DNA from: Thermodesulfobacteriota bacterium
GTDB taxonomy: Bacteria > Desulfobacterota_D > UBA1144 > Nemesobacterales > UBA2774
DNA: 64,000 nucleotides
Direction of reading: 5' to 3'
Assembly (NCBI GenBank): GCA_965216785.1
Contig: OZ244197.1
Location: 1,024,001-1,088,000 of the forward strand
Shown in pieces: positions 6,197 through 40,926 of the stretch. The notes below the pieces were generated by a model that had not been told where the DNA came from, searched no databases, and saw only the letters and a list, made by a program, of their open reading frames with translations. The position numbers and the translations under genes were made by a program. Within the stretch, counting starts at the first letter, position 1; each line of letters begins with the position of its first letter.

Positions 6197-7231
6197 ATGA
6201 ATAGGTTGTTTCTGATAAGTATTATCACAATTCTTACCTTCTGTGCCTGTCAGCACATCTCTTTTGCTGTGTGCGTAGAAGGCCCGCCGGATACATTTAC
6301 CTGTGACTCAAGCCCGCCTAACCCTGATCCCGACGGCATACAGCAGAGCGCTAACGATAACGGCGTCCAGGTGAATGTGCTTCCCAATGGGAACATAGAT
6401 ACGAATAACATGATTGCAATCGATTTAGGTAACGGGGCAAACCATGTGAACATTGACAGCGCTTCTGTAACCGGGCAAGACCGGGCTGTAACAACAGGTG
6501 ATGGGCCTGACGAGATTTCGCTCCATAAGGCAAACGTGGAAGGCCAGGGTTCGACCCTTTTCTTTAATGACGGCGACGATAATATTGAAATAAAAGACTC
6601 TTTGGTAACGACTACGGTCGGAGGTGTCACCATAAGCGTGGGTTCAGGAAGCGACACTGCCGTAATCAGTAGCAGTACAGTTTCCACAGGCCCCAATATC
6701 AGCCGCGCTTTCACCGGAGGACTCGGCAGAGAGGACCTCACTATCATGGACTCTGTCATAACCAACTCCTCAACAGACGTAACTGTCTCACTAGGGGCGG
6801 ATGACGACAAGGTATTTGTTACCCGCTCAACAATCACTAATGCAAACAATAATTTCCCCTTAGGCGGCGCCGCCGGGGATGATGAGCTAACCATCGGTAC
6901 AGGCGCGGTAATACCGGGCGGTATTGACTGTGACCTTGATATTGACAACGTACCCCGTGGCTTTGATACACTTATATTCGCGATGGAGGTCCCGCGGAGC
7001 CAGATCGCCATGTTCACGGAGCAGATTGAAAATGCACCCACGCCTGATGGTTCTGTCACTATTAACGGCATATTTTATCTTTACAGAAACTGTGATCAAT
7101 TAGTAGCGGACCTGAGAGTACCCGAAGGAAGACCCATCCCCACCCTGTCTGAGTGGGGGCTTATCGTGATGGCCGGAGTGTTGGGATTAATAGCTTTGGT
7201 TGCTATAAGAAGAAAGAGCGCAGTTCAATAA
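6197..7231 (+). CDS. IPTL-CTERM surface protein with RTX-like G-x-G-x-D repeats
   Basis: Signal peptide, GDGPD/GSGSD/GADDD repeats, C-terminal RPIPTLSEWG-TM-RRK; paralog of 29753..30712. Confidence 0.9.
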   Translation: MNRLFLISIITILTFCACQHISFAVCVEGPPDTFTCDSSPPNPDPDGIQQSANDNGVQVNVLPNGNIDTNNMIAIDLGNGANHVNIDSASVTGQDRAVTTGDGPDEISLHKANVEGQGSTLFFNDGDDNIEIKDSLVTTTVGGVTISVGSGSDTAVISSSTVSTGPNISRAFTGGLGREDLTIMDSVITNSSTDVTVSLGADDDKVFVTRSTITNANNNFPLGGAAGDDELTIGTGAVIPGGIDCDLDIDNVPRGFDTLIFAMEVPRSQIAMFTEQIENAPTPDGSVTINGIFYLYRNCDQLVADLRVPEGRPIPTLSEWGLIVMAGVLGLIALVAIRRKSAVQ

Positions 7232-7256
7232 ATAGCAGAATCAAAGTATAAAATTT

Positions 7257-7285
7257 AAAAAGGGAGCCGAAGCCCCCTCTTTTTT
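7257..7285. terminator. Bidirectional intrinsic terminator (GGGAGCCGAAGCCCCC)
   Basis: GC hairpin flanked by A and T runs between convergent genes. Confidence 0.75.
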
Positions 7286-7319
7286 AAGCGCAAGCTTCTA
7301 TCTAGAAATTTATCGTTAC

Positions 7320-8201
7320 CTAAACGCCCTTATCTTCAAGGCCTTCGGGGACTTCGCCGTAATAAATGGAGTCTTCTTTGTAGAGCTCTTTTATCTTTTC
7401 CTTAGGCATGTCGGGCATCCCTTCGTCAAGTCCGAACATCTTGCAAAGGTGCTTTAACTCTTCATCTCTTCCGGGATGCGGCGCCATAGGCTGAATCATA
7501 TGTTCCTCTTTTAGCTCTTCCCTTACCTCTTTGTCTTCATTAAGAGGGGTTCCGTACTCGTTATAGTGATAGAGCTTGTCAAACCTTTTTCTCGGTCTTT
7601 GTCCCGGGCTCTCGGCAGGATATCCCACGGCCATTAGCCATATGGGCACTATGTTATCAGGGACGCCGAGGATCTTGGGAAACTCTGCCGGTTTTCTTCC
7701 CGTTGCCAGCAAACAGCACCCGAGCCCGAGCTCAGTAGCTGCAAGAAGAGAGTTCGCGATTGCCTGACCGGCCTCGATCCTAAGCAGGTCTTCAGCCCTT
7801 TCCCTCGGAAAGCTCATTAGGCGAGGGTATGTGGTTTCAGTAAGAATCTTATAGGTCCACCCATAAGCTGCCGTAACCGCTCTTGCCGGAAACAGCACCG
7901 AGAAAGACTCGACCAGCTCCTTATACCATGCGTCCATATTAATTAGCCAGGCGATAGTAATGGGCGCCTGCCTTAACTGCTGTTCGTTAAAAGTTGAGGC
8001 GCATTCTATTATCTGCTCGAATTTCTCTTCCGGGTATGTCCTTTTGTCTATTACTATTGCCTCTGTGGCGCCGCAGTTGCCCTGACACGAGGCGTAACGA
8101 GCCGCCTGCAGCATCCTTTGAATCTTCCAGTCCTCGACCTCTTCCCAGGGCTTGAAAAACCTGATGCTCCTTCTGCTACCTATAGCTTCTAAAAGTTCCA
8201 T
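7320..8201 (-). CDS. Nitroreductase family protein
   Basis: N-terminal RRSIRFF, LLAATELGLGCC and AVGYP..PGQRPRK. Confidence 0.88.
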   Translation of the reverse strand: MELLEAIGSRRSIRFFKPWEEVEDWKIQRMLQAARYASCQGNCGATEAIVIDKRTYPEEKFEQIIECASTFNEQQLRQAPITIAWLINMDAWYKELVESFSVLFPARAVTAAYGWTYKILTETTYPRLMSFPRERAEDLLRIEAGQAIANSLLAATELGLGCCLLATGRKPAEFPKILGVPDNIVPIWLMAVGYPAESPGQRPRKRFDKLYHYNEYGTPLNEDKEVREELKEEHMIQPMAPHPGRDEELKHLCKMFGLDEGMPDMPKEKIKELYKEDSIYYGEVPEGLEDKGV

Positions 8202-8362
8202 ATTTATTGCCTCCTTATTTGCGAAAAGTAATTTAGTCTAAACGGAATTTAAAAAAATGTCTCCTGAGACCAGTTGTTTTAGTATAACTGAACGAGCGCT
8301 TGCTCGCCACATGTGATGGAGCATGGGAGTTTAATGTAAATAATTTGAGGATTAGGCCTGAA

Positions 8363-9121
8363 TCAGATATCTATTTCTAATAGATCCTGAGCCTCGATGA
8401 CTTTTGCCGTGACATTTTCCCTAATCTGCTGAACAACGTTTTCTTGGTCGCTTACGGGATAAAGATGTGTGACGACAATTTTTTTAGCACCGCACTCATT
8501 TGTAATCTTTATCACTTCTTTTGGTGTGAGATGACCTTTTCTCTTGTGCTGGTCAGGGAGCGCACATTCTATTATAAGAAGGTCCGCGTTCTGGGAGAGT
8601 TGTATTAGATTCTCTGAGTAATCGGTGTCGCCCGAATAAACGAGAGATTTCCCTTCTGCATCGATTCGGTACGCGAGACTGCTGTCGATATGGGGAACCT
8701 TCACGGCTGTAATATCTAGCTCTCCAGTACTAAGAGAGCCAGGCTCGATCTCTTCTATCTCCATACCCTCAGGCGCAATCCAATCTTTATACGCACTCTT
8801 AAGATTGTTGAAGAATTCAAGGAATCCTTCACCGCCCCAAATGCGAAGCGGCTTCTCTCTCTTCACGCCATAAGGGGACCATTCCGTGTATTTTCTTGCG
8901 AATAGAAACGGTACTAAATCACCTGTGTGGTCGGGGTGCAAATGGGAAAGAAATATATGGTCGATCTCCATATAGTTAATGCCGGCATGAGCCAGCTTCC
9001 AGGTGGAGCCATTTCCACAGTCGAGCAGCAGCTTTGAGTTCCCGGTCTCTATAGCATAGCCAGATGAGCCTCTCTGAGCGGAGGGAACGAGAGTCCCCGA
9101 TCCAAGAATTATGAGCTTCAT
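8363..9121 (-). CDS. MBL-fold metallohydrolase (RNase Z/BN-like)
   Basis: SHLHPDH, YSGDT, GHLT and THLYP motifs. Confidence 0.88.
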   Translation of the reverse strand: MKLIILGSGTLVPSAQRGSSGYAIETGNSKLLLDCGNGSTWKLAHAGINYMEIDHIFLSHLHPDHTGDLVPFLFARKYTEWSPYGVKREKPLRIWGGEGFLEFFNNLKSAYKDWIAPEGMEIEEIEPGSLSTGELDITAVKVPHIDSSLAYRIDAEGKSLVYSGDTDYSENLIQLSQNADLLIIECALPDQHKRKGHLTPKEVIKITNECGAKKIVVTHLYPVSDQENVVQQIRENVTAKVIEAQDLLEIDI

Positions 9122-22582: not shown

Positions 22583-22628
22583 ACCCGGAGAGTAAATCTA
22601 TAGCGGATATGTTGAGGATATAATTTAA

Positions 22629-23428: not shown

Positions 23429-23621
23429 CGTAGTACCATCTGCAAAGGCGCGTATAAGTCCCGAATATTAAGAATGCTCGACCGCTTATTTCTTAATAAT
23501 GGCCCCCCATAAACATATTATAGTCTAAAAATCCAAAATTAGTAATAGGCAGTTTGGATTGGGCCGCTGTCCCTGTAAACAGCCCGCGTTTTTGGGGATT
23601 GCTCTTGAGCCGGGCATTGGG

Positions 23622-23864
23622 ATGTACCGTGTGCAGGAGAGGATACTTGAGTTTCTGGACGGCGAGACAGAGCCGGTGCATAGGAAGCTGATATTTGAGG
23701 ACGTGCAGGACGAGACCGGAGCTAAGCAGAGAACAGTTGAACGCGGGATTGAGGAGCTTATGGCCCTAGGACATGTTACAAAGGTGAAAAGGGGTTACTA
23801 CATGCTCTCAGAGTTCGCGCCGCAAGCGCCAACCCTAGGGTTTGGCGGGAATGGCGGGAAGTGA
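23622..23864 (+). CDS. Small winged-helix protein or fragment
   Basis: QERILEFL...RTVERGIEELMALGHVTKVKRGYYML wHTH pattern; start uncertain and RBS weak. Confidence 0.55.
   Translation: MYRVQERILEFLDGETEPVHRKLIFEDVQDETGAKQRTVERGIEELMALGHVTKVKRGYYMLSEFAPQAPTLGFGGNGGK
23811..23860. repeat. Left imperfect inverted repeat of the R-M cassette (internally palindromic)
   Basis: GAGTTCGCGCCGCAAGCGCCAA-CCCTAGGG-TTTGGCGGGAATGGCGGGAA; both blocks match the reverse complement of 25992..26086. Confidence 0.8.
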
Positions 23865-23875
23865 GGGGGTATCTA

Positions 23876-24718
23876 TCAAAGAATATCTTTTTCTACTTCA
23901 GGTGCTTCTATTCCTAAATATTCTCTATATATTCTCTCCCTGTAGACATTACCAAGCTCATTTACAGCTTCAATGAATGCTTGGTAAGTTCCAGTACCAC
24001 CTATTTTGTCCCAAAATTCATTTCCAATTAGGACAACTTTGTCCTCTTTCATATCAAACCATCGTGCAGGAAAACTCCAACTATAGTTTTCTCTAGTGCC
24101 ATATGGGTTGTAGGGCAAAGCATAAAAAGCATCATCTATTTGCGGATTTGTCATACAGTAGAGTTTCAATATTTTTTCTTTACTTACTTTTGTCTGATCA
24201 CTATTGGGTAGAGGTGCTTTTAATTCAAATGCATATTTTTTGTCGTTATTATGATCTTCAGTGTAAACATCACATACAACTGTAATAGGAATTTCTTCAC
24301 CTTTGCCTTTCAGAATATAATTTATTTCAGTATCCCAATCGGGCCGTTTCCGCTTTTGTCCTTTCCCAGGGTGTTCCAATGCATTAAGGATTTCAGTTAT
24401 ACGTCTAAGCCTACCCTGTTTAATTGTTCCACTTATAGTATGATTTAATTTTCCAAAGCCAAGACCATGTTGTGCCGCAACAACAGCTAATTTTTCCCAA
24501 ACTCCACCAAATGGAGTTACAAATCTACGTTCAAAATGAGACCCTTGAAATATTTCATAAGGCACTAGTGCCGCATATAATGGTTTCTCAGCTTTAAATT
24601 TGTCCAGTAGAAAAGGATCTTCAACTAATACTTTCTCTAGAACTCTATCCATCAACAAATTGATAACTGATTGTATAGATGTTTTGATCTCATCATGAAC
24701 GCTCACAACTTTCTCCAT
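23876..24718 (-). CDS. Type II restriction endonuclease, TdeIII/MjaII-like
   Basis: FERRFVTPFG, CDVY...FELKAPLPNSDQ (PD-(D/E)xK), ALPYNPYG and EFWDKIGG motifs; AT-rich. Confidence 0.85.
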   Translation of the reverse strand: MEKVVSVHDEIKTSIQSVINLLMDRVLEKVLVEDPFLLDKFKAEKPLYAALVPYEIFQGSHFERRFVTPFGGVWEKLAVVAAQHGLGFGKLNHTISGTIKQGRLRRITEILNALEHPGKGQKRKRPDWDTEINYILKGKGEEIPITVVCDVYTEDHNNDKKYAFELKAPLPNSDQTKVSKEKILKLYCMTNPQIDDAFYALPYNPYGTRENYSWSFPARWFDMKEDKVVLIGNEFWDKIGGTGTYQAFIEAVNELGNVYRERIYREYLGIEAPEVEKDIL

Positions 24719-25920
24719 ATGAATACTGATTCATAGAATTCATTAGACCTTCTGCCTGTTCTGCGATTAACATGTCGTTGTACAATGGCTTCGATTTCAA
24801 CATCTACAAGTTTAGCAATTTGCTCATAAAGGTTTTTTGTATCAGCAGCAATAATTATCATCCTGCCACCAGGTGCTAATGCATTTTTTGCATTAATAAA
24901 AACATTAGCAAGTGCCTCTATATATTTTTGTTGTGCCTTCTTACTTGCGCCATTTGCAGCAGGACCAATTTCATCCTGGCTATTGTCTTCAAGTCCTAAC
25001 AAATGATATGCATATTCATGCTGTAAGTGGTAATCAATCAAACCAACATATGGTGGACTTGTAATAACACCGTCTATTGGTGGGTATGCGGCTTGTCGAC
25101 TATCCTGATGATGAACCTCTGATAATGCATTGGTTCGTAAATGTGAAAATTCCTTTATACGCCTTATAGTATCAAGGCTATATCTAGAGATAAATTTAAG
25201 AGCATCTTCTGTCGGTGTACACGTTCTAGAATGCTTATAACACCAATATTCAGTATTTTGAGGAAACTTAGGAAAATCGAGGTCATAATGTGTTGTTAAT
25301 CGTGCGGATCTTGCGGAACGGGAAAGTATTATTTTTAGAAGATCTTTGTATTTATAATTTCCTGTCTCTAGAAAGAATTTATAAGCTAACAGCTCATTTA
25401 AGGCTTTTGGTTTGTACCACTCTTTTAAGTATTGATTAGCAACAAATGTAGGGTTCTCTAACTTTAGATTTTCTTTCCAGAGACTTAGCTGGTTCTTATC
25501 TCTTTGTGAAAACTCGTTTACCTTTTTTAGGATATCTAATACTTCTTCGTTTAAACTAGAAATATCATATTTCTCTATCTTAACTTTAGACAATAATACA
25601 TTGAAAGCCGAAACATCATAACCAATAGTATTTATTCCTAACTCATTTGCTTGTATTAGTGTAGTACCTGAACCACAAAATGGATCTAGTATTGTTTGCC
25701 CGGGTTCAAAATACTTCCGTAAAAATATTTCTACTAACTGTGGGATAAATTTGCCCAGATATGGGTGTAGACGGTGAACATGCTTAGTTCTTTCTCTTTC
25801 TGGAAGCTCTTTTTCGTTCCAATTTAAGTTTAAAGATTCAAGTTTTGTATCTTTACTAACCCTACTAGGTATAGTGGGTGTTAACTCTTTGTATTCAGTT
25901 GTTTCTTGTGTCAACTGCAA
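24703..25920 (-). CDS. DNA N4-cytosine/N6-adenine methyltransferase
   Basis: HPYLGKFIPQL, DPFCGSGTT and ITSPPY motifs; overlaps the endonuclease gene. Confidence 0.9.
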   Translation of the reverse strand: MQLTQETTEYKELTPTIPSRVSKDTKLESLNLNWNEKELPERERTKHVHRLHPYLGKFIPQLVEIFLRKYFEPGQTILDPFCGSGTTLIQANELGINTIGYDVSAFNVLLSKVKIEKYDISSLNEEVLDILKKVNEFSQRDKNQLSLWKENLKLENPTFVANQYLKEWYKPKALNELLAYKFFLETGNYKYKDLLKIILSRSARSARLTTHYDLDFPKFPQNTEYWCYKHSRTCTPTEDALKFISRYSLDTIRRIKEFSHLRTNALSEVHHQDSRQAAYPPIDGVITSPPYVGLIDYHLQHEYAYHLLGLEDNSQDEIGPAANGASKKAQQKYIEALANVFINAKNALAPGGRMIIIAADTKNLYEQIAKLVDVEIEAIVQRHVNRRTGRRSNEFYESVFIWRKL

Positions 25921-25991
25921 TTTATCTGACCTTTAAATATTTTGTGGTATAACATACTAGATTGACTAATATACTTCAAATGTAAATGATG

Positions 25992-26086
25992 TTCCCGCCA
26001 ATCGCGCCAAAGTATGGGGACAGAGGCGAGCGTCTTAATGCGATGCCGGGGTGTTAATTAGAAATTGGCGCTTGCGGCGCTAACTC
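25992..26086. repeat. Right imperfect inverted repeat of the R-M cassette
   Basis: TTCCCGCCAATCGCGCCAAA (18/20 match) and TTGGCGCTTGCGGCGCTAACTC (21/22 match) to the left-end blocks. Confidence 0.8.
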
Positions 26087-26099
26087 AAAAGACAGAAAC

Positions 26100-26145
26100 A
26101 AAAAAGGGAGCCGAAAGGGAGATAATCTCCCTAAGCTCCCTCTTT
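26100..26145 (-). terminator. IPTL-type terminator with an internal insertion
   Basis: Minus strand GGGAGC-[TTAGGGAGATTATCTCCCT]-TTCGGCTCCC-TTTTTT. Confidence 0.7.
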
Positions 26146-26180
26146 CATACTTTAGTTTTTCTATTTGTTACCGCGAGTGG

Positions 26181-26693
26181 TTACGCCGCGGCTTTTCTTC
26201 TGCGGACTGCTAACAGCCCTACAATGCCCAAAACTCCCGCCATGGCTATGAGTCCCCATTCAGACAGCGTAGGGATGGGGCGCGCACCTAAAAAATTGCT
26301 AAATGTACACGATATAGCACCACCACCGCCAAAGCAGCCGATGGTCACAGTAGCGCCGTCAATGGAAAAATTAACATCTCCCTCAACCCCGCACTCTATA
26401 CCCTGAAGCTCCCATCCGTCTAAAGGCTGTTCTGTGACTGCGAGTGTGTCGCCCGGGTCTATGCTAGTTGCGAAAGAGTCAGAATCGGGGTCACTTAAGG
26501 GAACTTCAAAAACAATCTCACCGGAAACGTTTTCAAATGTGAACACCGTGTTGTTTGCGGGAGTGGACGATTTAACAATCTCTATATCACAGTCCGTTGG
26601 TTGAGCCCTGGCATCGGGGCTGAAACCCAAACCAATTCCAACGGCAACATACGCGAAAATAAATACCGCAGCAATTCTGTAAGCGATCTTCAT
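26181..26693 (-). CDS. IPTL-CTERM protein with a single prealbumin-like/CnaB-type domain
   Basis: Signal peptide, CDIEIVK...VTE...CTFSN, then RPIPTLSEWG-TM-RRRK. Confidence 0.9.
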   Translation of the reverse strand: MKIAYRIAAVFIFAYVAVGIGLGFSPDARAQPTDCDIEIVKSSTPANNTVFTFENVSGEIVFEVPLSDPDSDSFATSIDPGDTLAVTEQPLDGWELQGIECGVEGDVNFSIDGATVTIGCFGGGGAISCTFSNFLGARPIPTLSEWGLIAMAGVLGIVGLLAVRRRKAAA

Positions 26694-26794
26694 GATGGAT
26701 CCTCCTTTATGCGTAAAAAATTCAGATTTTTTCTACGCTAACATATTTTACTGCCTTTTTGAAGATATATCGGGCAAATAGAGCAGAAGAGCCG

Positions 26795-26855
26795 CGCGGT
26801 TTAATCAGGGGCTTTCTCGAACGTTACGCGGAGCATGCCCCCTTCGAGGCTGGCG
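26795..26855. repeat. Direct repeat copy 1 (duplicate of the arsA 3' end)
   Basis: 26795-26845 is identical to 27990-28040 (51 bp); the match extends to 61 bp with 2 mismatches. Confidence 0.95.
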
Positions 26856-27072: not shown

Positions 27073-27999
27073 ATGAATCTATTAAGAATAACAATTACAG
27101 CTTTTTTCATTTTTATGCTCTCCTACGGCGCAGCGAGTGCACAACATGCACTCTTGATTTCCGTCGACGATTTCTGCATACAAGACGATGTGGGTAGTGA
27201 GCAGAGCAGACTTTTCAGAGTTGACCCGGAAACAGGGCAGATAGTAAGTATCGGACCAATCGGTTTCGACGCCGTAACGGGCATGGCGCAGCTCGGTGAC
27301 GGGAGACTCGTGGGCAGCGCAAGAGCGGACGCGGATGGGGACAGGATATCTATCCTTATCGAAATAAACCCGCTCACAGGCACGGGTACACTCATCGGGA
27401 CCATCGGTAACAATAACGAGGGCGGCTGCGGCAGAGTGCCTGACCTTACCTACGACGCTGCTACGGATACGCTCTACGGAATAGGCTTCAGGTGTATTCC
27501 GGGTGACAGCCACGGCGGCATAACAGAGCTGCTTACTATAAATCAAAATACCGGAGAGGGCACTACAGTCGGGCAGACCGGGTTTTTCGGGGGCGGGAAC
27601 GGACTGGCCATCAGTCCCGGCGGTACGCTGTTTTCTTCTGAGAACGAAGAGTTTTTAACCCTTGACCCGGATACAGGCCAGGGAACGCTGGTTGCAAACC
27701 ATCCCCCACCGGGTGATTTCGTTATGTCTGCAATGGACTTCCAGCCTGAAACAGGTGATCTCTTTGGGGTTGCATTCAGATTTGGCGAAGGGTTCCCGAC
27801 CGATCTCGTAACCATAAATACTGCAACAGCCGTGTTAACCACAATACTCGAGTTGCCGGTCTGTTCAGATGCGATGGTGTTTATTGAAATTCCACCGAGA
27901 CCCATCCCTACGCTTTCCGAGTGGGGACTGATCGCTACAGCCGGAGTGCTGGGCATTATCGGCTTCTTTGCGCTCAGGAGAAGAAGGGCCGCGGTTTAA
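27073..27999 (+). CDS. IPTL-CTERM protein with beta-propeller-like repeats
   Basis: Signal peptide, repeated L..IDP.TG.GT..G motif and RPIPTLSEWG-TM-RRRR; GGGAGG RBS. Confidence 0.9.
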   Translation: MNLLRITITAFFIFMLSYGAASAQHALLISVDDFCIQDDVGSEQSRLFRVDPETGQIVSIGPIGFDAVTGMAQLGDGRLVGSARADADGDRISILIEINPLTGTGTLIGTIGNNNEGGCGRVPDLTYDAATDTLYGIGFRCIPGDSHGGITELLTINQNTGEGTTVGQTGFFGGGNGLAISPGGTLFSSENEEFLTLDPDTGQGTLVANHPPPGDFVMSAMDFQPETGDLFGVAFRFGEGFPTDLVTINTATAVLTTILELPVCSDAMVFIEIPPRPIPTLSEWGLIATAGVLGIIGFFALRRRRAAV

Positions 28000-28050
28000 T
28001 CAGGGGCTTTCTCGAACGTTACGCGGAGCATGCCCCCTTCTAGGTTGGCG
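27990..28050. repeat. Direct repeat copy 2
   Basis: Contains the overlapping stop codons of the IPTL gene (+) and arsA (-) in one TTAA. Confidence 0.95.
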
Positions 28051-29295: not shown

Positions 29296-29439
29296 ATGAG
29301 TGATAACAACGCTTCAGACAACAACGTACCAAATTCCTACCCGGGGCTATTTGCGGTTGCCTCTTTTTTGATCTTGCTGGCCACAGCGCTCTTGGCCGTA
29401 GGCGGGATCTACTTTAGCTTCATCAATCCTTCTTTTTAG
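29296..29439 (+). CDS. 47-aa small protein with a C-terminal TM helix (not in ORF track)
   Basis: MSDNNASDNNVPNSYPGLFAVASFLILLATALLAVGGIYFSFINPSF; GAGG RBS; TTGACA at 29235 with TAATAT/TATAAT downstream. Confidence 0.7.
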   Translation: MSDNNASDNNVPNSYPGLFAVASFLILLATALLAVGGIYFSFINPSF

Positions 29440-29752
29440 TCCTCTCTATTAATTTACACAGGGCATTCTCAATTCTTTAAAAATATTGTATGATTGAACT
29501 GTAATCTATTTTTAAAGGGGGAGAGAAAGAAAGCTCTATTCAAAAAAAGTCTCAGGGCTATTCGCTTTAACCTTTTTACTATTACAAGCGTTTATTATGC
29601 CTACACAGACTGCACAAGTGCAGCAGCCTTTCTTGAAATAGTAGGGCTCTCCGAAGAAGAAAGGTTACGGTTTAGTATAAGGAAAACAGTACAAAATCTA
29701 TTATTTTTTTTTAAAATAAAGCCGACTATCCAGTCTAAAGGAGAATGGAAAA

Positions 29753-30712
29753 ATGAGAAAGTTTCTATTATTAACTTTAATGTCAGTAAGCGTTTGCTTT
29801 GCATACAGCCAGATTACTTTTGCTGCTTGCGGCGGCGGACCTACGGTATATACGTGCGACACTGCCGATCCCAACCCCGACCCCACAGGTATTCAGGAGG
29901 AGACTAACGACAACACCCTTACCGTTAACGTATTGCCCGGAGCTGGCATTGATACCGCTTCGGGAAACGGTGGAAGTGCGATTGATCTGGGCGACGGCGG
30001 AAATACCATAACAGTAGACAACGGAAACTTAATTGGTGCAGATGACGCCGTCGAATCCGCATTTGGTAATGATATGGTAGACATTCTTGGCTCCGACTTA
30101 ACAGCAGGTGACGACTGTGTAGAAACCAGTAGTGGAAACGATACCGTTAACATGACTGATACGACCTGCTTACTAGTTGGTAATGCAGGCGATGGGTTGG
30201 AGCTAGCCAGCGGTAACGACACGGCAAGCGTTCTGCGCTCAACGATAACATGTAATCCTACCAACTCTGGCTGCGAGGCGATAGAAGGCGGTAACGGAGA
30301 AGACGATGTAACCGTTGTGGAATCAACACTCCGAGGCGGTGGTGTCAATCCGGATGCTATTGCGCTGGGCGGCGGTAACGATATTGCAACATTAGGCACA
30401 GGGTCTAACCTTGAAGGCTTGATTGACTGTGGTAGCAATTTCGACACTCTCATTTTCGCTATGGACGTGCCTGAGGAAGCGGTCGGTCTTATTACTTCGC
30501 AAATTCTAGCAGCAGGTCTCCCCGACGGCAGCATCAGCATAAACAACCTTTTCTATGAGTGGGAAAACTGCGAGCTTCTTGTACCGCAATTAAACGGCGT
30601 ACAAAACGTGAGACCAATCCCCACCCTATCTGAATGGGGACTTATAGCTATGGCTGGAGTATTAGGTCTGGTTGGTTTACTCGCTGTCAGAAGAAAGAAA
30701 GTAACAGCATAA
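29753..30712 (+). CDS. IPTL-CTERM surface protein with RTX-like GND repeats
   Basis: Signal peptide, SGNDT/GGND repeats and RPIPTLSEWG-TM-RRKK; paralog of 6197..7231. Confidence 0.9.
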   Translation: MRKFLLLTLMSVSVCFAYSQITFAACGGGPTVYTCDTADPNPDPTGIQEETNDNTLTVNVLPGAGIDTASGNGGSAIDLGDGGNTITVDNGNLIGADDAVESAFGNDMVDILGSDLTAGDDCVETSSGNDTVNMTDTTCLLVGNAGDGLELASGNDTASVLRSTITCNPTNSGCEAIEGGNGEDDVTVVESTLRGGGVNPDAIALGGGNDIATLGTGSNLEGLIDCGSNFDTLIFAMDVPEEAVGLITSQILAAGLPDGSISINNLFYEWENCELLVPQLNGVQNVRPIPTLSEWGLIAMAGVLGLVGLLAVRRKKVTA

Positions 30713-30746
30713 TCAGAAATTAACTTAAACAGTACGGTTTATACTT

Positions 30747-30773
30747 AAAAAGGGGAGCTTCGGCTCCCTTTTT
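30747..30773 (+). terminator. IPTL-type terminator GGGAGC-TTCG-GCTCCC-T run
   Basis: cUUCGg hairpin followed by a U tract. Confidence 0.85.
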
Positions 30774-30847
30774 CACATGTATAAGTAGACAGTTCCGTTG
30801 TACTTGGGAACCGCAGCTTTAGCGGGAAAATGTTTTGTTAATAAGCA

Positions 30848-30876
30848 GATGGGGGCAGACCGAAGCCTGCCCCATC
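30848..30876. terminator. Hairpin downstream of the minus-strand gene pair
   Basis: GATGGGGGCAGACCGAAGCCTGCCCCATC; U tract weak. Confidence 0.5.
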
Positions 30877-30906
30877 CGCACAATCGCCGAGTTCTGTAAA
30901 TTATCG

Positions 30907-32574: not shown

Positions 32575-32651
32575 TGCCGGTCCTCCCTCTTTAAATACTT
32601 TCTTCAAACCTCTTGTCGTCTCTGATGCTTTCTTTTTTATTTGTCCTTTTC

Positions 32652-33644: not shown

Positions 33645-33943
33645 ACGCCTCCATTAATAATAGATTTTTACAAAGCCGCTAACTTTGACGTTTATGCTCA
33701 AAGAAAAAAACAGCCATGACTTAAACTGCAAATTTCAAATCTATTAGTTCGGCGGTCTAATGAACGTAATTATTCATTACCCGGAGAGGCAGTGGTGCGT
33801 ATTCCTTTAATGGAGTGTGTGCCTTAGCTTCTCTGTATAAAACCCTGCTGTGCCTTTGCTGAACTGATATGTTACTTATACGCGATCTTAAATTATAAGA
33901 CCCGTTGACCCATCATTCCTCTCCCCCCAAAGGGGATATCCCG

Positions 33944-33972
33944 ATTATATCTTATTCTTTTTTTTAGAACAA
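33944..33972 (-). promoter_or_regulatory. Sigma70-like promoter
   Basis: TTGTTC-17bp-TATAAT on the minus strand. Confidence 0.5.
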
Positions 33973-34159
33973 GTGTTTTAAAATTACTATATGAGATTTA
34001 ATTATTGTATATAGACAATATGTCGTTGATCTCAGTTTATCCGCTTAGAATGCCGGAGCTCTGAAGCATTGCAATCCCTTTATTGCGCATGACTTAACAT
34101 GTATTCTATGTTGCTAAGTAATCAAACTGAGAACTGTGATAATTAAGGAGAGTGAGCGA

Positions 34160-34714
34160 ATGACAAATCCTAGCCCGTCCGAGTTTAGCGCCGGTAGTAC
34201 AGATCAAGAAAGCGCGCTTGCCAAGCGCATACGCGTTGACGAGGCGCTTTTTCTGAGCCTGATCGCGCTATCGACCATAGGTATAGGGATTACCAATTTC
34301 TGGCCTGTAGAGAGTTTTTGGTTCTGGGCCGCCATGGTGCCGGTGTTCGGCTTAACGAGCATTTACCTGGGCTGGTCAAAAGCCCGGCAAAGGGGCGAGG
34401 GAGTAGCCAGGATCATACGCATCCAGGTGCTTCACTGGATCGGCTTATTAGCGGCGCTAATTCTTATTTATTACCTGTTCAAGCCCACGGGGCGGATAGA
34501 TTACAACCAGCTCGCTCTTATCACGCTCCTGGCGCTCGCGCTAACCACGTTCCTTGCCGGGGTGCATTTTGACTGGCGCTTCATGGTGGTGGGGGTTATT
34601 CTCGGGTTTGCTGTCGCCGGGGCCGCGTTCCTGGAGCAGTTCATATGGGTGATCATCATCCCCGTCGTAGCGGCGATAGGGCTTATAGTCTTTTGGTGGC
34701 AGAGAAAGCTGTAG
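34160..34714 (+). CDS. Hypothetical multi-pass membrane protein
   Basis: About 6 TM helices; QVLHWIG and FLAGVH segments; GGAG RBS before ATG 34160. Confidence 0.8.
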   Translation: MTNPSPSEFSAGSTDQESALAKRIRVDEALFLSLIALSTIGIGITNFWPVESFWFWAAMVPVFGLTSIYLGWSKARQRGEGVARIIRIQVLHWIGLLAALILIYYLFKPTGRIDYNQLALITLLALALTTFLAGVHFDWRFMVVGVILGFAVAGAAFLEQFIWVIIIPVVAAIGLIVFWWQRKL

Positions 34715-34969
34715 AGCGTCTGCAAGTGCGTAGCCGTTATCGTTTACTCTCCTGAGCGCTTCGCTGCTTAAACACTATAAATTATATAATACATCGGTAG
34801 ACTATCCGGGGTTTCATTATACAATTACCTGTCAATTATGTTCCTGATTGTTGCTATTAGTTAACCAGTTTGGTGTGAAATGAATCGATGGTTATGTGTC
34901 TAGGTCCTGCCGCCGAATTTTTAAAGTAACTACAGTGATTGTTAGATCTAATTTTAAGGTGTATATAAC

Positions 34970-36955
34970 ATGGGAATTGAGCTTCTGACCGATATTTTAA
35001 TCATATTTAGTATTTCCGTAGTCGTGCTTTACATTTGTCATCGTCTTAGCATTCCTACAATCGTCGGATTCCTCATAAGCGGTATATTAGCCGGGCCTCA
35101 CGGGCTAGGGTTGATCGGTGCGGTTCATGAAGTTGAGCTTTTAGCGGAAGTCGGCGTTGTGTTACTGCTTTTTACTATCGGGATTGAACTATCTTTCGCA
35201 AAGTTACTGAAAATTAGAAAAACAGTCCTTGTGGGCGGCGCTATACAGGTGTCCCTGACCATATTGGCCACATTTTTAGTAGCTAAGCAACTTGGGTATG
35301 GTCTTGGCGAGGCTATATTTTTAGGGTTTCTTATCTCTCTTAGCAGTACCGCGATCGTACTAAAGCTGATCCAGGAGAGATCGGAAGTCGATACCCCCTA
35401 TGGACGCGCAACACTTGGTATTTTGATATTCCAGGATGTAATTATTGTCGCAATGATATTGGCTACACCCCTTCTTTCCATAGCAAGGCTAAGCCTTGAC
35501 GGGTCTGTAATGCTTGCCTTATTAAAAGGAATCGGGGTAATTCTGCTAGTGATCGTAGCCGCTAGGTGGATTGTGCCCCGGGTTTTGTATCAGATTGCCA
35601 AGACCAGAAACAGAGAAGTCTTTTTGTTAAGTATTTTTGTAATATGCCTCGCCGTTGCCTGGGCAACTTCCAGTGTGGGGTTTTCCCTTTCAATAGGCGC
35701 GTTTTTAGCGGGCTTAATTATTTCGGAGTCAGAGTATGGTCATGAAGCTCTGAGTAACGTGCTCCCATTTCGCGATATCTTCACAAGCTTCTTTTTTATC
35801 TCCATCGGTATGCTGCTCAATATCGGTTTCCTTTTCGAGCAAACAGTGCTCGTCGTGCTGATCGCTTTTGGGGTTCTATTTGCCAAGTCCGTCATTGCGG
35901 GTTTGGCGGCGGTTTTGCTGGGACTCCCCCTGCGCACATCGCTCTTAGTCGGTCTTGCGCTTTGTCAGGTGGGAGAATTTTCGTTTATTTTATCCGAGAC
36001 CGGTATCGAAAACGGATTACTTGATGAAAGTTCATATCAAATGTTTCTTGCGGTATCCGTGCTTACAATGCTGGTAACGCCGTTTATCATCATTTTAGCT
36101 CCCCGCTTTGCGGATTCAATTTTACGGCTGCCAATTCCCGGCAAGTTAAGATCGGGTTTCTATCCGTTAACCGAAGTCAATTTTCAAACTAAGAAAGACC
36201 ATCTTATAATCATAGGCTATGGATTGAACGGCAGAAATATCGCGCGAGCGGCCAGGGCAGCCGGCATTCCCTATGTAATTATTGAGATGAATCCCGACAC
36301 AGTAAAAAGCGAGCAGGCAAAAGGTGAGCCGATTTACTATGGCGACGCGACTAGGGAGACAATACTTGAGCATGCCAACATCAAGGATGCGAGGATTGTC
36401 GTGTCCGTAGTTAACGACCCTGCTTCAAACCGAAGGATTGTCGAATTATCCAGAAGACTTAATCCGGAAGGTTATGTTGTCTCGAGAACTAGATATGTTA
36501 ACGAGGTGAAACCACTTTATGAAATAGGTGCGGACGAAGTCGTCCCTGAAGAGTTTGAGACGTCTATCGAGATTTTCACGCGGGTTTTGGAAAAGTATCT
36601 TATACCTAAGGGTAATATTGAGGGGCTTATAGCCGAGGTGCGCTCGGATGGGTATAAGATGTTCAGAAATGCTTCCGCGGACGTGTTATCAGCTCCGGAT
36701 TTGAAGATTCAGCTTCCCGATATAAAAATTAGTACGTTATCGGTTGCCGAAAATTCCCCTTTAGTGGGGAAAAGTTTGGCTGAAATGAGGTTAAGGCAAA
36801 GATACGGCATCTTGGTTTTGGCGATACGTCGAAACTCGGAAATCATATCCAACCCGGACAGCAATATGGAGTTTTTAGCCGGGGACGACCTATTTGTGCT
36901 GGGAGCGCCGGATAAGATAGCGGAAATTGACAGTTTAGTACTAAATCCCGAATAG
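34970..36955 (+). CDS. CPA2 (Kef-type) cation:proton antiporter with TrkA-N and TrkA-C domains
   Basis: LSSTAIV, FQD and IIGYGLNG motifs; C-terminal RCK_C domain. Confidence 0.92.
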   Translation: MGIELLTDILIIFSISVVVLYICHRLSIPTIVGFLISGILAGPHGLGLIGAVHEVELLAEVGVVLLLFTIGIELSFAKLLKIRKTVLVGGAIQVSLTILATFLVAKQLGYGLGEAIFLGFLISLSSTAIVLKLIQERSEVDTPYGRATLGILIFQDVIIVAMILATPLLSIARLSLDGSVMLALLKGIGVILLVIVAARWIVPRVLYQIAKTRNREVFLLSIFVICLAVAWATSSVGFSLSIGAFLAGLIISESEYGHEALSNVLPFRDIFTSFFFISIGMLLNIGFLFEQTVLVVLIAFGVLFAKSVIAGLAAVLLGLPLRTSLLVGLALCQVGEFSFILSETGIENGLLDESSYQMFLAVSVLTMLVTPFIIILAPRFADSILRLPIPGKLRSGFYPLTEVNFQTKKDHLIIIGYGLNGRNIARAARAAGIPYVIIEMNPDTVKSEQAKGEPIYYGDATRETILEHANIKDARIVVSVVNDPASNRRIVELSRRLNPEGYVVSRTRYVNEVKPLYEIGADEVVPEEFETSIEIFTRVLEKYLIPKGNIEGLIAEVRSDGYKMFRNASADVLSAPDLKIQLPDIKISTLSVAENSPLVGKSLAEMRLRQRYGILVLAIRRNSEIISNPDSNMEFLAGDDLFVLGAPDKIAEIDSLVLNPE

Positions 36956-37057
36956 GGCGGGGGCTGTTATATTAAAACTTGCTCCGCTATTACTAAGGCT
37001 TAAGTGATTGTTGATTATATCGCCGGCAGCCAAGTTTTATAAAAAAGGAAGTCCCTG

Positions 37058-38281
37058 TTAATAAGTAAATCCCCAAACGCTCTGTATTATCAAAAAGCAC
37101 AGGCACAACAGGAACCCGGTTACGGGGATTGCTGTCGGGTAGGTCTTTATTCCCTCCGGGTGAGGGTCTTTTTGCTTCAGCCTCCAAAGCGATAGGTTCA
37201 TGAAGGCAAACACCGTAAGGGTGATAAAGCTTGATATCTCGGCGAGGCGGAGCAGAGGGAGCCAAAGAGCGAGCGCCAAAATGAACGCGGTGATGAAACA
37301 CGTGGCTACAAGCGGCGTCCTGGTAAATCTGTTCACGGATGAGAACACGCGCGGGGCCATCGAGCGTTTGCCCATGCCGTAAAGTATACGAGAGCCCATG
37401 ATTATCTGAATCAGCGCGCCGTTTACTACGGCAACAATGCTTACAAGGCTTATCGGCTTTGATGACAGGTTCGATTTGTATTCGTATATGGCGGCAAGCG
37501 GAGCGTCGCTCCCCGAGAGTACGTCAAGGGGGACTGATAGCACCGCCGTGAGGGAGACGAGGAGATAAAGAAGCGTAGAAATACATAGTGCGAATATAAT
37601 TGCTTTTGGCAGGTTTCGCCTTGGCTCCTTGACCTCCTCCGCTACGTTTACAATATCCTCAAACCCGACAAAGGCATAGAACGCGAGAAACGCGCCGAGC
37701 GATACGGAGATCCATGCCTGAGCCTCAAGGGGCGGGATAAATTCAGAGAACCTATCCGGAAGCTGGGTAAAAGAATCACCCGCGACAACGATTACCGAGA
37801 GGAGCCCCACTATCTCGATTAGCGTTATGATAGAGGCGGCGGTGACAGAGGTCGTGATTCCCCACGCCGCTACGATCCCTAAAAAGATGAGCAATGCGGC
37901 GATAGCGGCCCAATCCGGAATGTTGACGAATATCTTGAAATAGCCGACAAAGCCGTTTGCTATTGTCGCGGCGGACACAGAGCCAATCATGACCACCGAC
38001 CAGCCGATCGCGGCGGATATCCAGCGAAGAGAGAACGCCTCTTGCGCATAGGCAGCTTCACCCGCGCTTTGGGGATAGCGTGAGGATAGCTCGGCGTATG
38101 AGAAGGCGGTGAAGCCCGCGATGACAGAGGCCATCAGAAAAGAAAGTGGGGTAAACATTCCTGATTTTCCCGCGACTTCACCTATCAGAACGTATATGCC
38201 GGCGCCGAGGATCGTACCCAGGCCGTAGAGTGTGACCAGCGGTACGGACAGTGTTCGTTTTAAGGATGTTTCTTGTGGAAT
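37058..38281 (-). CDS. APC-family amino acid permease; probable non-canonical ATT start at 38281
   Basis: The frame extends 41 codons upstream of ATG 38158 and includes LKRTLS...YGLGTILGAGIYVL; also YAELSSRYP and FYAFVGFED. Confidence 0.85.
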   Translation of the reverse strand: MPQETSLKRTLSVPLVTLYGLGTILGAGIYVLIGEVAGKSGMFTPLSFLMASVIAGFTAFSYAELSSRYPQSAGEAAYAQEAFSLRWISAAIGWSVVMIGSVSAATIANGFVGYFKIFVNIPDWAAIAALLIFLGIVAAWGITTSVTAASIITLIEIVGLLSVIVVAGDSFTQLPDRFSEFIPPLEAQAWISVSLGAFLAFYAFVGFEDIVNVAEEVKEPRRNLPKAIIFALCISTLLYLLVSLTAVLSVPLDVLSGSDAPLAAIYEYKSNLSSKPISLVSIVAVVNGALIQIIMGSRILYGMGKRSMAPRVFSSVNRFTRTPLVATCFITAFILALALWLPLLRLAEISSFITLTVFAFMNLSLWRLKQKDPHPEGIKTYPTAIPVTGFLLCLCFLIIQSVWGFTY

Positions 38282-38395
38282 ATTTACGCACCTCTACTTA
38301 TTTATAGACTACTTAATATACTGGTAATAAATAACAGCTAAGATTCTATTTGACTAACTTTAGCAATAAGCACAGAAATTTAATACAATATTATA

Positions 38396-39295
38396 GTGAT
38401 TAGAAAAGATAAACAGCACATCGTCTTTAGAGCCAGCGACGGTTTTGAGATAGACGGTCTCTTGCTTCCTCGGGATGCTGACTCTGAAGAAGAGATATTA
38501 GAAACTCCCATAGTCTTAATTATCCACGGAGAGCTGGGTCATTTTCTCTCACAAGGCACTCCGAGACTTTTGCCTGATTACTTGTATGATAAGGGTATAA
38601 GCTCTTTCGCAATTAATACCAGAATGGCTAATATCGGACAGAAGACTGGTGGGGCTATATTCGATGATGCGATAATGGATATAGAGGCTGCTGTCGAAAT
38701 ACTTAAAGAGGCAGGTTTTCATCGAATATATTTATTGGGTTACAGCCTTGGATCAAATTTAGCTGTTTACTATACTTCTCAATCTCCAGATCCTAATGTT
38801 AAAGGAATAATTCTGGAAGGCTGTACATACTCGCTTCCTGAATCACACAAAAAACGCCTGATGAAATGGGAGAGCGTCCCTTCATATGATGAGATATATG
38901 AGAAAGCAAAGGAGATTTTAAAGCCGGACCCGTATACAAGCTTAAACGATACTCTTTTAGTGGTTTCCCGTGCTTGGGGACCCACATTTAAACCTACGCA
39001 TTTTGGAATATATACCTATAGAACATGGTGGTTTATGAAAGGTCCGGAAGCTACAAAAACCAGAGCATACAAACTAATCTCAAAAGTTAAAGTGCCGATT
39101 CTTTTTCTACGCGGTGAGAATGACCGAATTGTTGAAGACCGGGAAACTACCGAATTAGCGAGCATAGCTCGTGAGGCTGGAAATTCTGATGTAACTATAA
39201 AGTACATTCCGGATGCACGCCACGACTGTATGGAGAATCCCGGTAAAACTATAGAGACAATAACCACCTGGATATCTTTAGTTGATTCGCTGTAA
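38396..39295 (+). CDS. Alpha/beta-fold hydrolase
   Basis: IIHG, GYSLG nucleophile elbow, GENDRIV and ARHD. Confidence 0.85.
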   Translation: MIRKDKQHIVFRASDGFEIDGLLLPRDADSEEEILETPIVLIIHGELGHFLSQGTPRLLPDYLYDKGISSFAINTRMANIGQKTGGAIFDDAIMDIEAAVEILKEAGFHRIYLLGYSLGSNLAVYYTSQSPDPNVKGIILEGCTYSLPESHKKRLMKWESVPSYDEIYEKAKEILKPDPYTSLNDTLLVVSRAWGPTFKPTHFGIYTYRTWWFMKGPEATKTRAYKLISKVKVPILFLRGENDRIVEDRETTELASIAREAGNSDVTIKYIPDARHDCMENPGKTIETITTWISLVDSL

Positions 39296-39345
39296 AAATC
39301 TTATGGCAATATTCCGCTGTTAAACTAGATAGATTTACAGGGAAA

Positions 39346-39371
39346 CAAAAAGGGAGCCGAAGCCCCTTTTT
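39346..39371 (-). terminator. IPTL-type terminator
   Basis: Minus strand AAAAAGGGGC-TTCG-GCTCCCTTTTT. Confidence 0.75.
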
Positions 39372-39395
39372 GTTTCATAAGTGTAATTGGTCACA

Positions 39396-39581
39396 TTAAG
39401 ATGTGTATTTCCTTCTTCTCATTACGAGTAAACCGATTATCCCGAGTACTCCGGCCATAGCTATCAGACCCCACTCAGACAGTGCGGGGATGGGGCGCGC
39501 CACGATTTGGTTTGAAAAAATACAGGTTGCCTGATAGCCTGATAAACACTCAAGCTCTATAAAAGAAAGAAGCGAATCAAA
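39396..39581 (-). pseudogene. 5'-truncated IPTL-CTERM gene remnant (not in ORF track)
   Basis: Translates FDSLLSFIELECLSGYQATCIFSNQIVARPIPALSEWGLIAMAGVLGIIGLLVMRRRKYTS*; in-frame TAA upstream and no signal peptide. Confidence 0.85.
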
Positions 39582-39650
39582 TTATGCTTTGTTTTAGATG
39601 CTGGTTGACTATAATAAACTCTAAACGCTAAATAAGCTGGAGGATGCGAC

Positions 39651-40277
39651 ATGAAAAAGTATATTGTTGAATTTATCGGGACCTTAATATTTGTACTTAC
39701 CATAGGTTTTGTTGTTTTAGAGCCCGGAGCGGGCGTGATGGCGCCGCTTGCGATCGGATCGGCTTTGATGGTGATGATATATGCCGGAGGGCATATATCG
39801 GGCGGGCATTATAACCCAGCTGTAACAATTGCCGTCTGGCTAAGGGGCAGGTGCGCCGGGTCCGATGTGCCGGGATATATAATTGCCCAGATTGTGGCGG
39901 CGGTAGTGGCCTCGTTCATAGTCCTGTACGTAAAGGGTAACCCGGCGGTAGAGCCTATGACGCTAAATCTGGCCCCGGCGCTGTTAGTGGAGTTTCTCTT
40001 CACGTTCGCACTTTGTTATGTGGTTTTAAATACGGCTACTTCAAAGAATACTGAGGGTAATTCATATTACGGGCTTGCTATAGGGTTTATTGTTGTTGCC
40101 GGCGCCTATGCCGTGGGTCCTGTGTCAGGCGCTGCGTTCAATCCTGCCGTGGCTGTGGGTATATCCGTTATGGGACTTTCGGTCGTAAGTAATATCTGGG
40201 TATATTTCGCGGCAAATTTCGTTGGGGGAGCTATAGCGGCGCTGGTATTCAACGCCCTGAACCCTGACGACAAGTAA
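39651..40277 (+). CDS. Aquaporin (MIP family)
   Basis: HISGGHYNPAVT and SGAAFNPAV dual NPA motifs. Confidence 0.95.
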   Translation: MKKYIVEFIGTLIFVLTIGFVVLEPGAGVMAPLAIGSALMVMIYAGGHISGGHYNPAVTIAVWLRGRCAGSDVPGYIIAQIVAAVVASFIVLYVKGNPAVEPMTLNLAPALLVEFLFTFALCYVVLNTATSKNTEGNSYYGLAIGFIVVAGAYAVGPVSGAAFNPAVAVGISVMGLSVVSNIWVYFAANFVGGAIAALVFNALNPDDK

Positions 40278-40284
40278 TTTTGAT

Positions 40285-40318
40285 AAACTATGCGTCAATA
40301 CGACGCATAGTTTTTTTT
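40285..40318 (+). terminator. Aquaporin terminator
   Basis: AAACTATGCGTC-AATAC-GACGCATAGTTT followed by a T run. Confidence 0.85.
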
Positions 40319-40344
40319 GCAGCACAGATAGATTCTCGGGCAAA

Positions 40345-40375
40345 TAAAAAAAGGGAGCCGAAGCTCCCTTTTTTT
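40345..40375 (-). terminator. IPTL-type terminator
   Basis: A7-GGGAGCCGAAGCTCCC-T7 on the plus strand. Confidence 0.85.
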
Positions 40376-40401
40376 ATTCTTTTAAATTGTGAGTTTAAGA
40401 G

Positions 40402-40926
40402 TTACGCTTCCGCTTTCTTTCTGGTTATTCCCCAAATGCCTACCAGTACTAAAATTCCCGCCATTGCTATGAATCCCCACTGCGAAAGAGTAGGTATGGG
40501 GCGGGGGCCCGAATTGGAAAAAGTACAGCTGCCTACACCGTCATCGACGCATGTTATAGCAACTCTTTGTTCGTTTACGAACTCGGTCAGAAAGAGACAT
40601 GGGCCACCACCGCAGTCATCTTCTTCTACCGTACATTCTATACTGCCCAGTTCCCATCCGGGAGGAACTAACTCCGTTAAACTTACCTCATTACCGTTTT
40701 CTATAAACATCAGCTCTGTATCGTCGCTTGGGTCTGACAATGTAAAGCTGAAATTTTGATCCCCGGTGACTTCGAAAGTGAAAATTGTGTCGTCCGGTGG
40801 TATAGCCGCCTTATTGATTGTTATCGGACAGAACGCGTTTGCCTGGCCGGTGCCGAGCACCAAAAAGCCTGCGCCCATTAACACGGTAAGTATGAATAGA
40901 CTTATCAAATTTCGTGTATATCTCAT
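40402..40926 (-). CDS. IPTL-CTERM protein with a single prealbumin-like/CnaB-type domain
   Basis: CPITINK...LTE...CTFSN, then RPIPTLSQWG-TM-RKK; paralog of 26181..26693. Confidence 0.9.
   Translation of the reverse strand: MRYTRNLISLFILTVLMGAGFLVLGTGQANAFCPITINKAAIPPDDTIFTFEVTGDQNFSFTLSDPSDDTELMFIENGNEVSLTELVPPGWELGSIECTVEEDDCGGGPCLFLTEFVNEQRVAITCVDDGVGSCTFSNSGPRPIPTLSQWGFIAMAGILVLVGIWGITRKKAEA

Follow-up and report, generated by a model that had tools for sequence, protein, structure and literature searches.

The stretch of DNA analysed here (64,000 nucleotides, hereafter the window) spans G000:C1:1,024,001-1,088,000 of G000, a 3.12-Mb single-contig genome, 92% complete, of a Thermodesulfobacteriota bacterium, and holds six loci whose open reading frames (ORFs) end in the IPTL-CTERM sorting signal. 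We find that in relatives and at six G000 genes this C-terminal tail belongs to a DNA module of ~230 nt, in which tail, spacer and terminator hairpin continue into the right end of an IS3-family insertion sequence (IS). Many IPTL genes probably reached new sites on an IS3 transporter element that includes the sorting signal, and their passengers are probably swapped by recombination at the constant 3´ end. The original prediction, that tail and terminator spread together as a DNA module, thus stood as far as the module is concerned, while the IS3-family vehicle into which the module continues had been overlooked. The relatives that carry the same module are named Candidatus Dadabacteria, Thermodesulfobacteriota or uncultured bacterium.

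The tail-terminator module and its IS3-family carrier

A tail profile run on G000 identified 57 tail-bearing ORFs in ~21 passenger clusters (given f-numbers; blastp E<1e-5), together with a few broken tails. Genes outside the window are labelled g followed by their G000 stop coordinate. The GGGAGC hairpin follows 33/57 IPTL genes vs 12 of the 2,733 other genes in a crudely called gene set (2,732 in the matrix test below). Seven of these 12 are convergent partners that share the hairpin of an IPTL gene; without such sharers the hairpin lies after 5/2,733 non-IPTL genes. In addition, the exact 16-mer of the hairpin occurs in 21/24 genomes of the family and in 0/16 other genomes. The hairpin is therefore not equally common elsewhere, and its scarcity after non-IPTL genes other than convergent partners agrees with what had been noted in the window. 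This specificity for IPTL genes and for the family indicates that tail and terminator form a homologous DNA module and not a generic terminator.

Hairpins also vary in state. At loci of genus g2 (L042-L054) the outer arms are kept around varied palindromic loops of 15-25 nt, some of which look like abutted IS ends, and 29/52 tails were matched. One site was seen in three states (L012, L032, G000 2,993,500), with a full IPTL gene in G001, a tail-only remnant plus hairpin in G002 and a degenerate hairpin in G000.

The repeat behind several hairpins is the right end of an IS3-family element, represented at G000 1,323,501 by the one G000 copy with uninterrupted orfA and orfB. The two frames overlap, with an A-run at the overlap; orfA matches HTH_Tnp_1, and orfB passes NF033516 (178 vs 160 bits) with HTH_21, rve and rve_3. 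The terminal inverted repeats (IRs) are imperfect and ~40 bp long, with an outward -35 box in the right end, and gave 29 matches in G000 and 0 on the reversed genome. As placed by target duplications, the right end finishes CA and the left end starts TA; IS3 ends usually read 5´-TG...CA-3´.

In G000 the right end lies 108-123 nt past the stop of 6/57 IPTL genes from five clusters, always in the same orientation, and five of these six genes sit in tRNA-anchored islands. A right-end matrix trained on relatives only recovered 5/57 IPTL genes vs 2/2,732 other genes (Fisher p 6e-8). Transposase remnants accompany some of these modules: g867885 has an orfB remnant upstream and an IS left end inside its hairpin loop, and g1284083 has a left end and an orfA remnant upstream. 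Two collection scans with a consensus-tail-plus-hairpin pattern yielded 12 genome and 41 metagenome loci, and a right end lies behind 27/53 of these distinct loci, a fraction that is not a genome-wide rate because the scans selected for the consensus tail and the exact hairpin.

Complete IPTL carriers of 2.0-2.4 kb, consisting of left end, orfA, orfB, IPTL gene, hairpin and right end, were found at L091, L116, L117, L127 and L162, and IPTL elements without an intact transposase (transposase-less or truncated) at L096 (876 bp), L102 and L121. Perfect 4-bp target duplications flank 4/10 IPTL carriers with readable flanks (L127, L096, L162 and L166) and also 2/2 carriers of a methyltransferase (L169, L170); across all elements with readable flanks this amounts to 6/12, with one more duplicated at 3 of 4 bp. 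L166 contains two cassettes, and its tailed gene is the antisense second cassette, scored only by our own profile. Hence the passenger inside the ends moved as a unit with the transposase in L127 and L162, without it in L096, and as part of a two-cassette element in L166. As judged from these sequences, transposition is a way in which some IPTL genes spread. In an alignment of 17 elements, with cargo from at least nine clusters, the match runs from the last 100 nt of the tail through spacer, hairpin and linker to the right end. Moreover, L127 and L174 (G041) occupy the same insertion site: their left flanks agree at 99-100% across the 420 nt that follow ffh, and the IS bodies are 84-97% identical. 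Their cargo is unalike; that of L174 has 60% identity with gene 27073 of the window. An inner right end is intact in L168, eroded in L127 and eroded or missing in L117, which suggests that the elements arose as IS-gene-right end composites. Three copies of a tyrosine recombinase of 211-221 aa, 80-88% identical, adjoin IS right ends and IPTL modules at G000 870,977, 1,163,454 and 1,289,455, and the recombinase has the same neighbours in L122.

We propose that the element would move by copy-out/paste-in transposition via a circle, as parts of an account of IS3 biology describe (PMC9330008). A RecA-type crossover in the 100-150-nt tail module or in the hairpin could then bring a resident passenger to an IS end, or an IS-borne passenger to a resident tail. 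After insertion the IS ends would decay while selection retains tail and terminator, as may have happened in the window; tandem duplication and tRNA-integrated islands would provide further routes, and XrtH would cleave and anchor the products. We also consider, more tentatively, that the element is a natural surface-display vector, that is, an IS3 right end that gained a sorting signal and made a terminator from its own inverted repeats, that most of the surface repertoires in this Dadabacteria family (5-57 genes) were built by it, and that the hairpin is also a landing site for cargo. This fuller version is possible but doubtful; if true, any domain recombined in front of the tail would become surface-anchored and mobile at once.

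Several observations weigh against a large role for the IS3 element. No right end follows 51/57 G000 IPTL genes, and one was found after 1/45 tails at G001/G002 loci and after 1/51 tails at array loci from other genera. Behind the six window genes the IR score never rises above background, the window holds no IR match, and no transposase remnant lies beside these genes. The element captures genes in general, not those for IPTL proteins alone. Among ~26 family-genome loci with an orfB end, ~9 have IPTL-type cargo, ~13 have other genes and four have none or are unclear, in a tally made by eye that includes three loci picked because IPTL matches lay nearby. At L127 and L174 the element could have inserted twice, independently, into a preferred target, and the contig of L174 stops short of the tail. 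Several solitary genes, 27073 included, lie between direct repeats of 33-81 nt that are not IS3-like and correspond to the end or the terminator of the target gene. Flanking direct repeats of a target gene end are typical of integrative elements. The scarcity of right ends means either that many genes spread by other means or that the ends erode once the element has inserted, as is seen at g2681322 and g1615674.

The most serious rival is ordinary expansion, in which tandem duplication, island transfer and occasional RecA crossover built the repertoire and IS3 captured one IPTL gene late, so that it would explain a young minority only. Consistent with this, 30/57 genes have an IPTL neighbour within 1 kb, 9/57 lie in tRNA-anchored islands, hairpin-to-hairpin units were duplicated without IS ends (741-742 kb vs 1,330-1,331 kb), right ends are rare behind the tails of G001/G002 and of the arrays, and ComEC is present. 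However, it leaves unexplained why cargo from at least nine clusters, and in several genera, is followed by one conserved hairpin-linker-right-end junction, and why eroding right ends and transposase remnants lie beside G000 genes. Nor is the location of IPTL genes near tRNAs or integrases, or in islands, significantly enriched over rotation controls (p 0.12-0.52). We therefore regard ordinary expansion as unlikely to account for the repertoire by itself.

The distribution of the genes has other features. At G000 2,672,267-2,682,606 and 1,606,810, three 49-nt copies of the 3´ half of tRNA-Thr(cgt) each lie just upstream of an IPTL gene or remnant, and one such copy is inside the tRNA-Ser island. 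A region of ~790 kb that runs through the contig ends (G000 3,007,000-679,000) is devoid of IPTL genes, the remaining 2.33 Mb holding all 57. At L044 (G018:C16 62,000-65,800) six short tandem IPTL genes have nearly identical tails, which suggests recent local amplification or conversion.

Reassortment of tails and passengers

Near-identical spacers on unrelated passengers, and different passengers at the same site in relatives, indicate that tails and passengers do reassort, though rarely. Eight of 528 spacer pairs score above the highest shuffled score, and six of the eight join passengers without significant similarity. Window gene 26181 and g1940909 (G000 1,940,909), which have unrelated passengers, show 88% identity along the 150 nt that stretch from the RPIP codons through the spacer to the hairpin arm. 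Likewise, g870743 and g1608200 share 31 identical spacer bases, while a sister of g870743 that is 89% identical to it has a different spacer. The paralogues g870743 and g2125164 show a synonymous identity of 220/248 in the passenger vs 14/28 in the tail (p 4e-6), and g1607202 and g2679950 are 80% identical over 462 nt beginning mid-tail. Finally, where G000 has g2706006 and g1334621, G002 has passengers from different clusters (same-site loci L006 and L013). The proposal that passengers are swapped at the tail was thus upheld for the reassortment itself, whereas homologous recombination is the swap step that we infer from it.

Mosaic identity of another kind was seen against G002 in the comparisons of 6197-7231 with L014 and of g2275619 with L002. 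The passenger cores are mostly 83-97% identical at the DNA level and the tails 73-80%, with the 5´ end of 6197 at ~50%, a pattern that suggests allele exchange between species.

Two further results weigh against frequent exchange. Averaged over the tails, synonymous sites are almost saturated (0.32 vs 0.27 expected), and the tails of syntenic G000/G002 orthologues have diverged as core genes have, with a synonymous identity of 0.64 vs 0.64 (11 pairs, 76 core ORFs). These data rule out wholesale homogenisation of the tails. For the tree comparison that had been suggested, a tree of 31 modules over 142 columns has 3/28 branches supported and 22 label changes vs 23.6 when shuffled. Approximately unbiased (AU) tests on 30 rows, with one long branch dropped, rejected none of seven clusters as a clade (p 0.21-0.68), and these tests have no power either way.

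Could the transposase itself do the swapping? The hairpin arms match the core of the IS inverted repeat and might act as IR-like targets or secondary ends, so that cargo would be exchanged like cassettes by site-directed transposition. The IS left end within the hairpin loop of g867885, the junction of a restriction-modification (R-M) cassette in the loop of gene 26181, the long-loop hairpins of genus g2 that resemble abutted ends and the retention of the exact 16-mer across the family all fit such a scheme. Yet most shared tracts begin within the tail coding sequence and not at the hairpin, the arms are only 6-7 nt, spacers tested for a decayed IR gave a marginal p of 0.045, and a C(UUCG)G stem may be kept for stability alone. 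We consider exchange by the transposase improbable, and crossover within the tail module remains our preferred swap step.

Strain comparisons bear on the pace of exchange. The strain runs come from two studies. Contigs of run X5, from a conspecific strain, span five window loci (the remnant and genes 26181, 27073, 29753 and 40402) and show few differences there, and X5 and X6 span the IPTL genes at 2.12-2.14 Mb. The retention of IPTL genes in conspecific runs with few differences argues that turnover is slow. No strain-level swaps were found in window 22500-42000 (X5, X7, X8 and X10; gene 6197 lies outside this comparison) or in G000 2,124,501-2,143,500 (X5-X8). Joints were taken from contigs, and the short joints between tails in strain contigs are best read as paralogues. 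Thus the suggested surface-diversification system found no support as a fast or programmed one: orthologous tails diverge like core genes, and the conspecific strain keeps the five window loci compared. A programmed antigenic variation or diversity-generating system (an integron, a diversity-generating retroelement (DGR) or a repetitive extragenic palindromic (REP)-tyrosine transposase) that switches surface proteins within populations could draw on the large repertoire, the tandem arrays of relatives and tail-only remnants as acceptors, but it is highly implausible given that conspecific runs keep IPTL genes at both regions compared, that every full gene has its own signal-peptide-like start, and that the 92% complete genome gave 0 matches to reverse transcriptase (PF00078), 0 to Y1 tyrosine transposase (PF01797) and a best score of 90 of 265 bits for the integron integrase IntI (TIGR02249). 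What we describe is passenger exchange over evolutionary time, not programmed antigenic variation.

IPTL-CTERM loci of the window

All six ORFs in the window end in RPIP(T/A)LS(E/Q)WG followed by a hydrophobic stretch and a basic end, and 6/6 pass the curated cut-offs of TIGR04174 and PF18203, so that all six predicted loci proved to be IPTL-tailed. Gene 6197 (6197..7231, + strand) encodes 344 aa with a beta-solenoid passenger of cluster f2 and has an orthologue at the same site in G002. Gene 26181 (26181..26693, - strand; 170 aa) has a CnaB-like SpaA_4 passenger and gene 27073 (27073..27999, + strand; 308 aa) a propeller-like DUF4394 passenger. The passenger of gene 29753 (29753..30712, + strand; 319 aa) is a predicted beta-solenoid, modelled at a predicted local distance difference test (pLDDT) score of 90, with weak Foldseek matches to beta-helices (best E 0.01). 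Gene 40402 (40402..40926, - strand; 174 aa) again has a SpaA_4 passenger, and the 5´-truncated remnant (39396..39578, - strand) keeps ~12 codons of a SpaA_4-type passenger end and an intact tail. In metagenome locus L104 an intact SpaA_4-type IPTL gene lies upstream of the same neighbour gene as the remnant.

Three passenger classes had been proposed for these loci. The CnaB-like and propeller-like classes are supported by SpaA_4 and DUF4394, while the RTX-like label for 6197 and 29753 was a loose one, as neither has an RTX family match in Pfam at E 0.1 and the 29753 model is a beta-solenoid. Among matches to the 29753 passenger, 44/46 carry PF18203 and none carries another anchor domain (lengths 175-559 searched). 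Genes 26181, 27073 and 29753 are missing from the syntenic stretch of G002, where the sites of the latter two are empty, and the site of 40402 is empty in G018 and G021 (genus g2).

A terminator within 25-40 nt had been predicted after five of the six genes, and hairpins indeed lie 28-40 nt past five stops: after 6197 at 7262..7277 (+ strand; 30 nt), after 26181 at 26106..26140 (- strand; 40 nt), after 29753 at 30753 (40 nt), after the remnant at 39353..39368 (- strand; 28 nt) and after 40402 at 40353..40368 (- strand; 33 nt). A scan of the window for the hairpin gave three matches vs 0.13 expected, and folding z is -4.7 to -6.1 for 4/5 hairpins. The one after 6197 (z -0.8) contains a single mismatch, has the UUCG of its loop on the strand of a convergent nitroreductase-like gene, opposite to 6197, and resembles a bidirectional terminator. 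Two others are common to convergent genes, the remnant sharing its hairpin with a hydrolase-like gene and 40402 its exact hairpin with a MIP-family channel gene. The spacer and exact hairpin after 29753 (30713..30773, + strand) have no IS right end 3´ of them, and the spacer aligns with modules that bear IS ends. Gene 27073 is without a hairpin and its stop overlaps the convergent arsA gene. It lies between direct repeats that are 92% identical; copy 1 (26781..26855, + strand) consists of the arsA 3´ end plus ~20 nt, and copy 2 (27978..28050, + strand) overlaps the arsA 3´ end as well as the final 22 nt of gene 27073.

The type II R-M cassette (23561..26132, - strand), which encodes an N6/N4 methylase (24703-25920, - strand) and a TdeIII-family endonuclease (23876-24718, - strand), is strain-variable. 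It is absent in runs X5 and X7, and its right junction falls within the loop of the 26181 hairpin. This loop contains a 19-nt palindromic insert in G000, and the hairpin has the canonical UUCG form in X5 and X7.

One further window gene (30907-32676, - strand) encodes 589 aa with a hexapeptide beta-helix and thrombospondin type 3 repeats. Its neighbour (32652-33644, - strand) encodes 330 aa without a Pfam or NCBIfam match and lies in a stretch unmatched in the five relatives searched. A REP-like repeat family of ~45-50-nt units, often in short tandem runs, is present at window 26013-26051 and at ~33 loci in G000, and also in G001 and G002; an IPTL gene is close to only 1/33 loci, and a search for a Y1 transposase gave no match. 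A second family, 180-200 nt long and resembling miniature inverted-repeat transposable elements (MITEs), occupies 16 loci in G000 (161,089; 1,937,751; 2,080,929; 2,140,470 and others). An Rfam scan of the window returned a tRNA and nothing else.

Exosortase H and comparison with known systems

The link between IPTL-CTERM and exosortase H had implied an xrtH gene in the genome, and G000 has a single exosortase H (TIGR04177, 93.6 vs 86 bits) with an associated membrane gene (XrtH_assoc) at 983.5-984.7 kb. Across 41 genomes, tails occur in 27, of which 25/27 have xrtH, and the 14 tail-less genomes are also without xrtH; tail counts reach 56 per genome within the family. PF18203 has 56 matches in G000. 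Pfam families on 36 tail-bearing ORFs include SpaA_4, PD40 and other propellers, C-type lectin, NIDO, laminin G and P-domain, and many have no family. By their co-occurrence with the one exosortase H, the IPTL-tailed proteins are predicted to be cleaved by XrtH and anchored at the surface. A search for tail-less paralogues yielded a single region (G000 2,288,282-2,289,550), which encodes a propeller; in its degenerate tail the helix and basic end remain and the IPTL motif has been lost.

LPXTG, PEP-CTERM, GlyGly-CTERM and IPTL-CTERM tails are homologous and occur on dozens of unrelated proteins per genome, and their transfer at the DNA level to new passengers has rarely been caught. Steps of such a transfer are visible here as a fixed tail-terminator-IS-end module, insertions with target duplications, same-site changes of cargo and decayed relics, which together give a testable route for the spread of a sorting signal. 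The 230-nt module also offers a marker with which an uncultured group can be mined for surface and S-layer-like proteins, and an insertion sequence would here be building up a surface repertoire instead of spreading resistance genes. A literature search of partial coverage, with most subscription journals outside it, found no paper that ties IPTL-CTERM to IS elements or to Dadabacteria, or a sorting signal to an IS end, and the main text of a bioRxiv myxosortase paper does not mention IPTL.

By their profile matches, the window genes are members of the XrtH/IPTL-CTERM system (TIGR04177, TIGR04174, PF18203, NF041730), with which they share the arrangement of one xrtH and its associated membrane gene serving many tailed proteins. 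The available portion of the work on GlyGly-CTERM likewise describes many tailed proteins per one exosortase and homologous tails on unrelated proteins (PMC3237569, section 7), and the S-layer protein of Methylomirabilis lanthanidiphila is described, in the portion available, as an IPTL-CTERM protein (PMC8671808). Unlike in the parts of these accounts that treat the tail as a protein domain, the tail is here part of a DNA module with a fixed terminator, an IS end and traces of transposition.

The carrier shows the IS3 and transporter-IS features tested, except for its TA left tip. Transporter ISs and IS3-family members such as IS911 are described, in the part of the source available, as having a passenger between transposase and right end, an outward -35 box and short target duplications (PMC9330008), and the element described here has all three. 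It is unlike them in that its cargo slot ends in a coding sorting signal, so that a passenger newly joined in frame would be surface-anchored, and in that its left end starts TA, not TG as is usual.

A multigene repertoire between transposon ends has a parallel in Xanthomonas, where mobile insertion cassettes with Tn3-family ends carry genes for transcription activator-like effectors (TALEs) and other effectors, and 45% of TALE genes are IR-associated according to the portion of the study available (PMC4337579). Solo ends, clusters and target duplications are common to both cases; by contrast, the chemistry here is that of IS3 and not of Tn3, and the cargo genes are mutually unrelated, with the anchor alone in common. 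Like integron cassettes, the IPTL genes are single-gene units that end in a conserved hairpin and form tandem arrays; unlike in integrons and DGRs, IntI and reverse transcriptase were not found in G000, the genes seem to bring their own upstream regions, and the constant part is the C-terminus. In the terminal reassortment of type III effectors, reportedly described by Stavrinides, Ma and Guttman in 2006, new domains become joined to a terminal secretion or sorting signal together with the regulatory DNA of that signal. The present system mirrors that arrangement, with a C-terminal anchor and terminator in place of a promoter and N-terminal signal.

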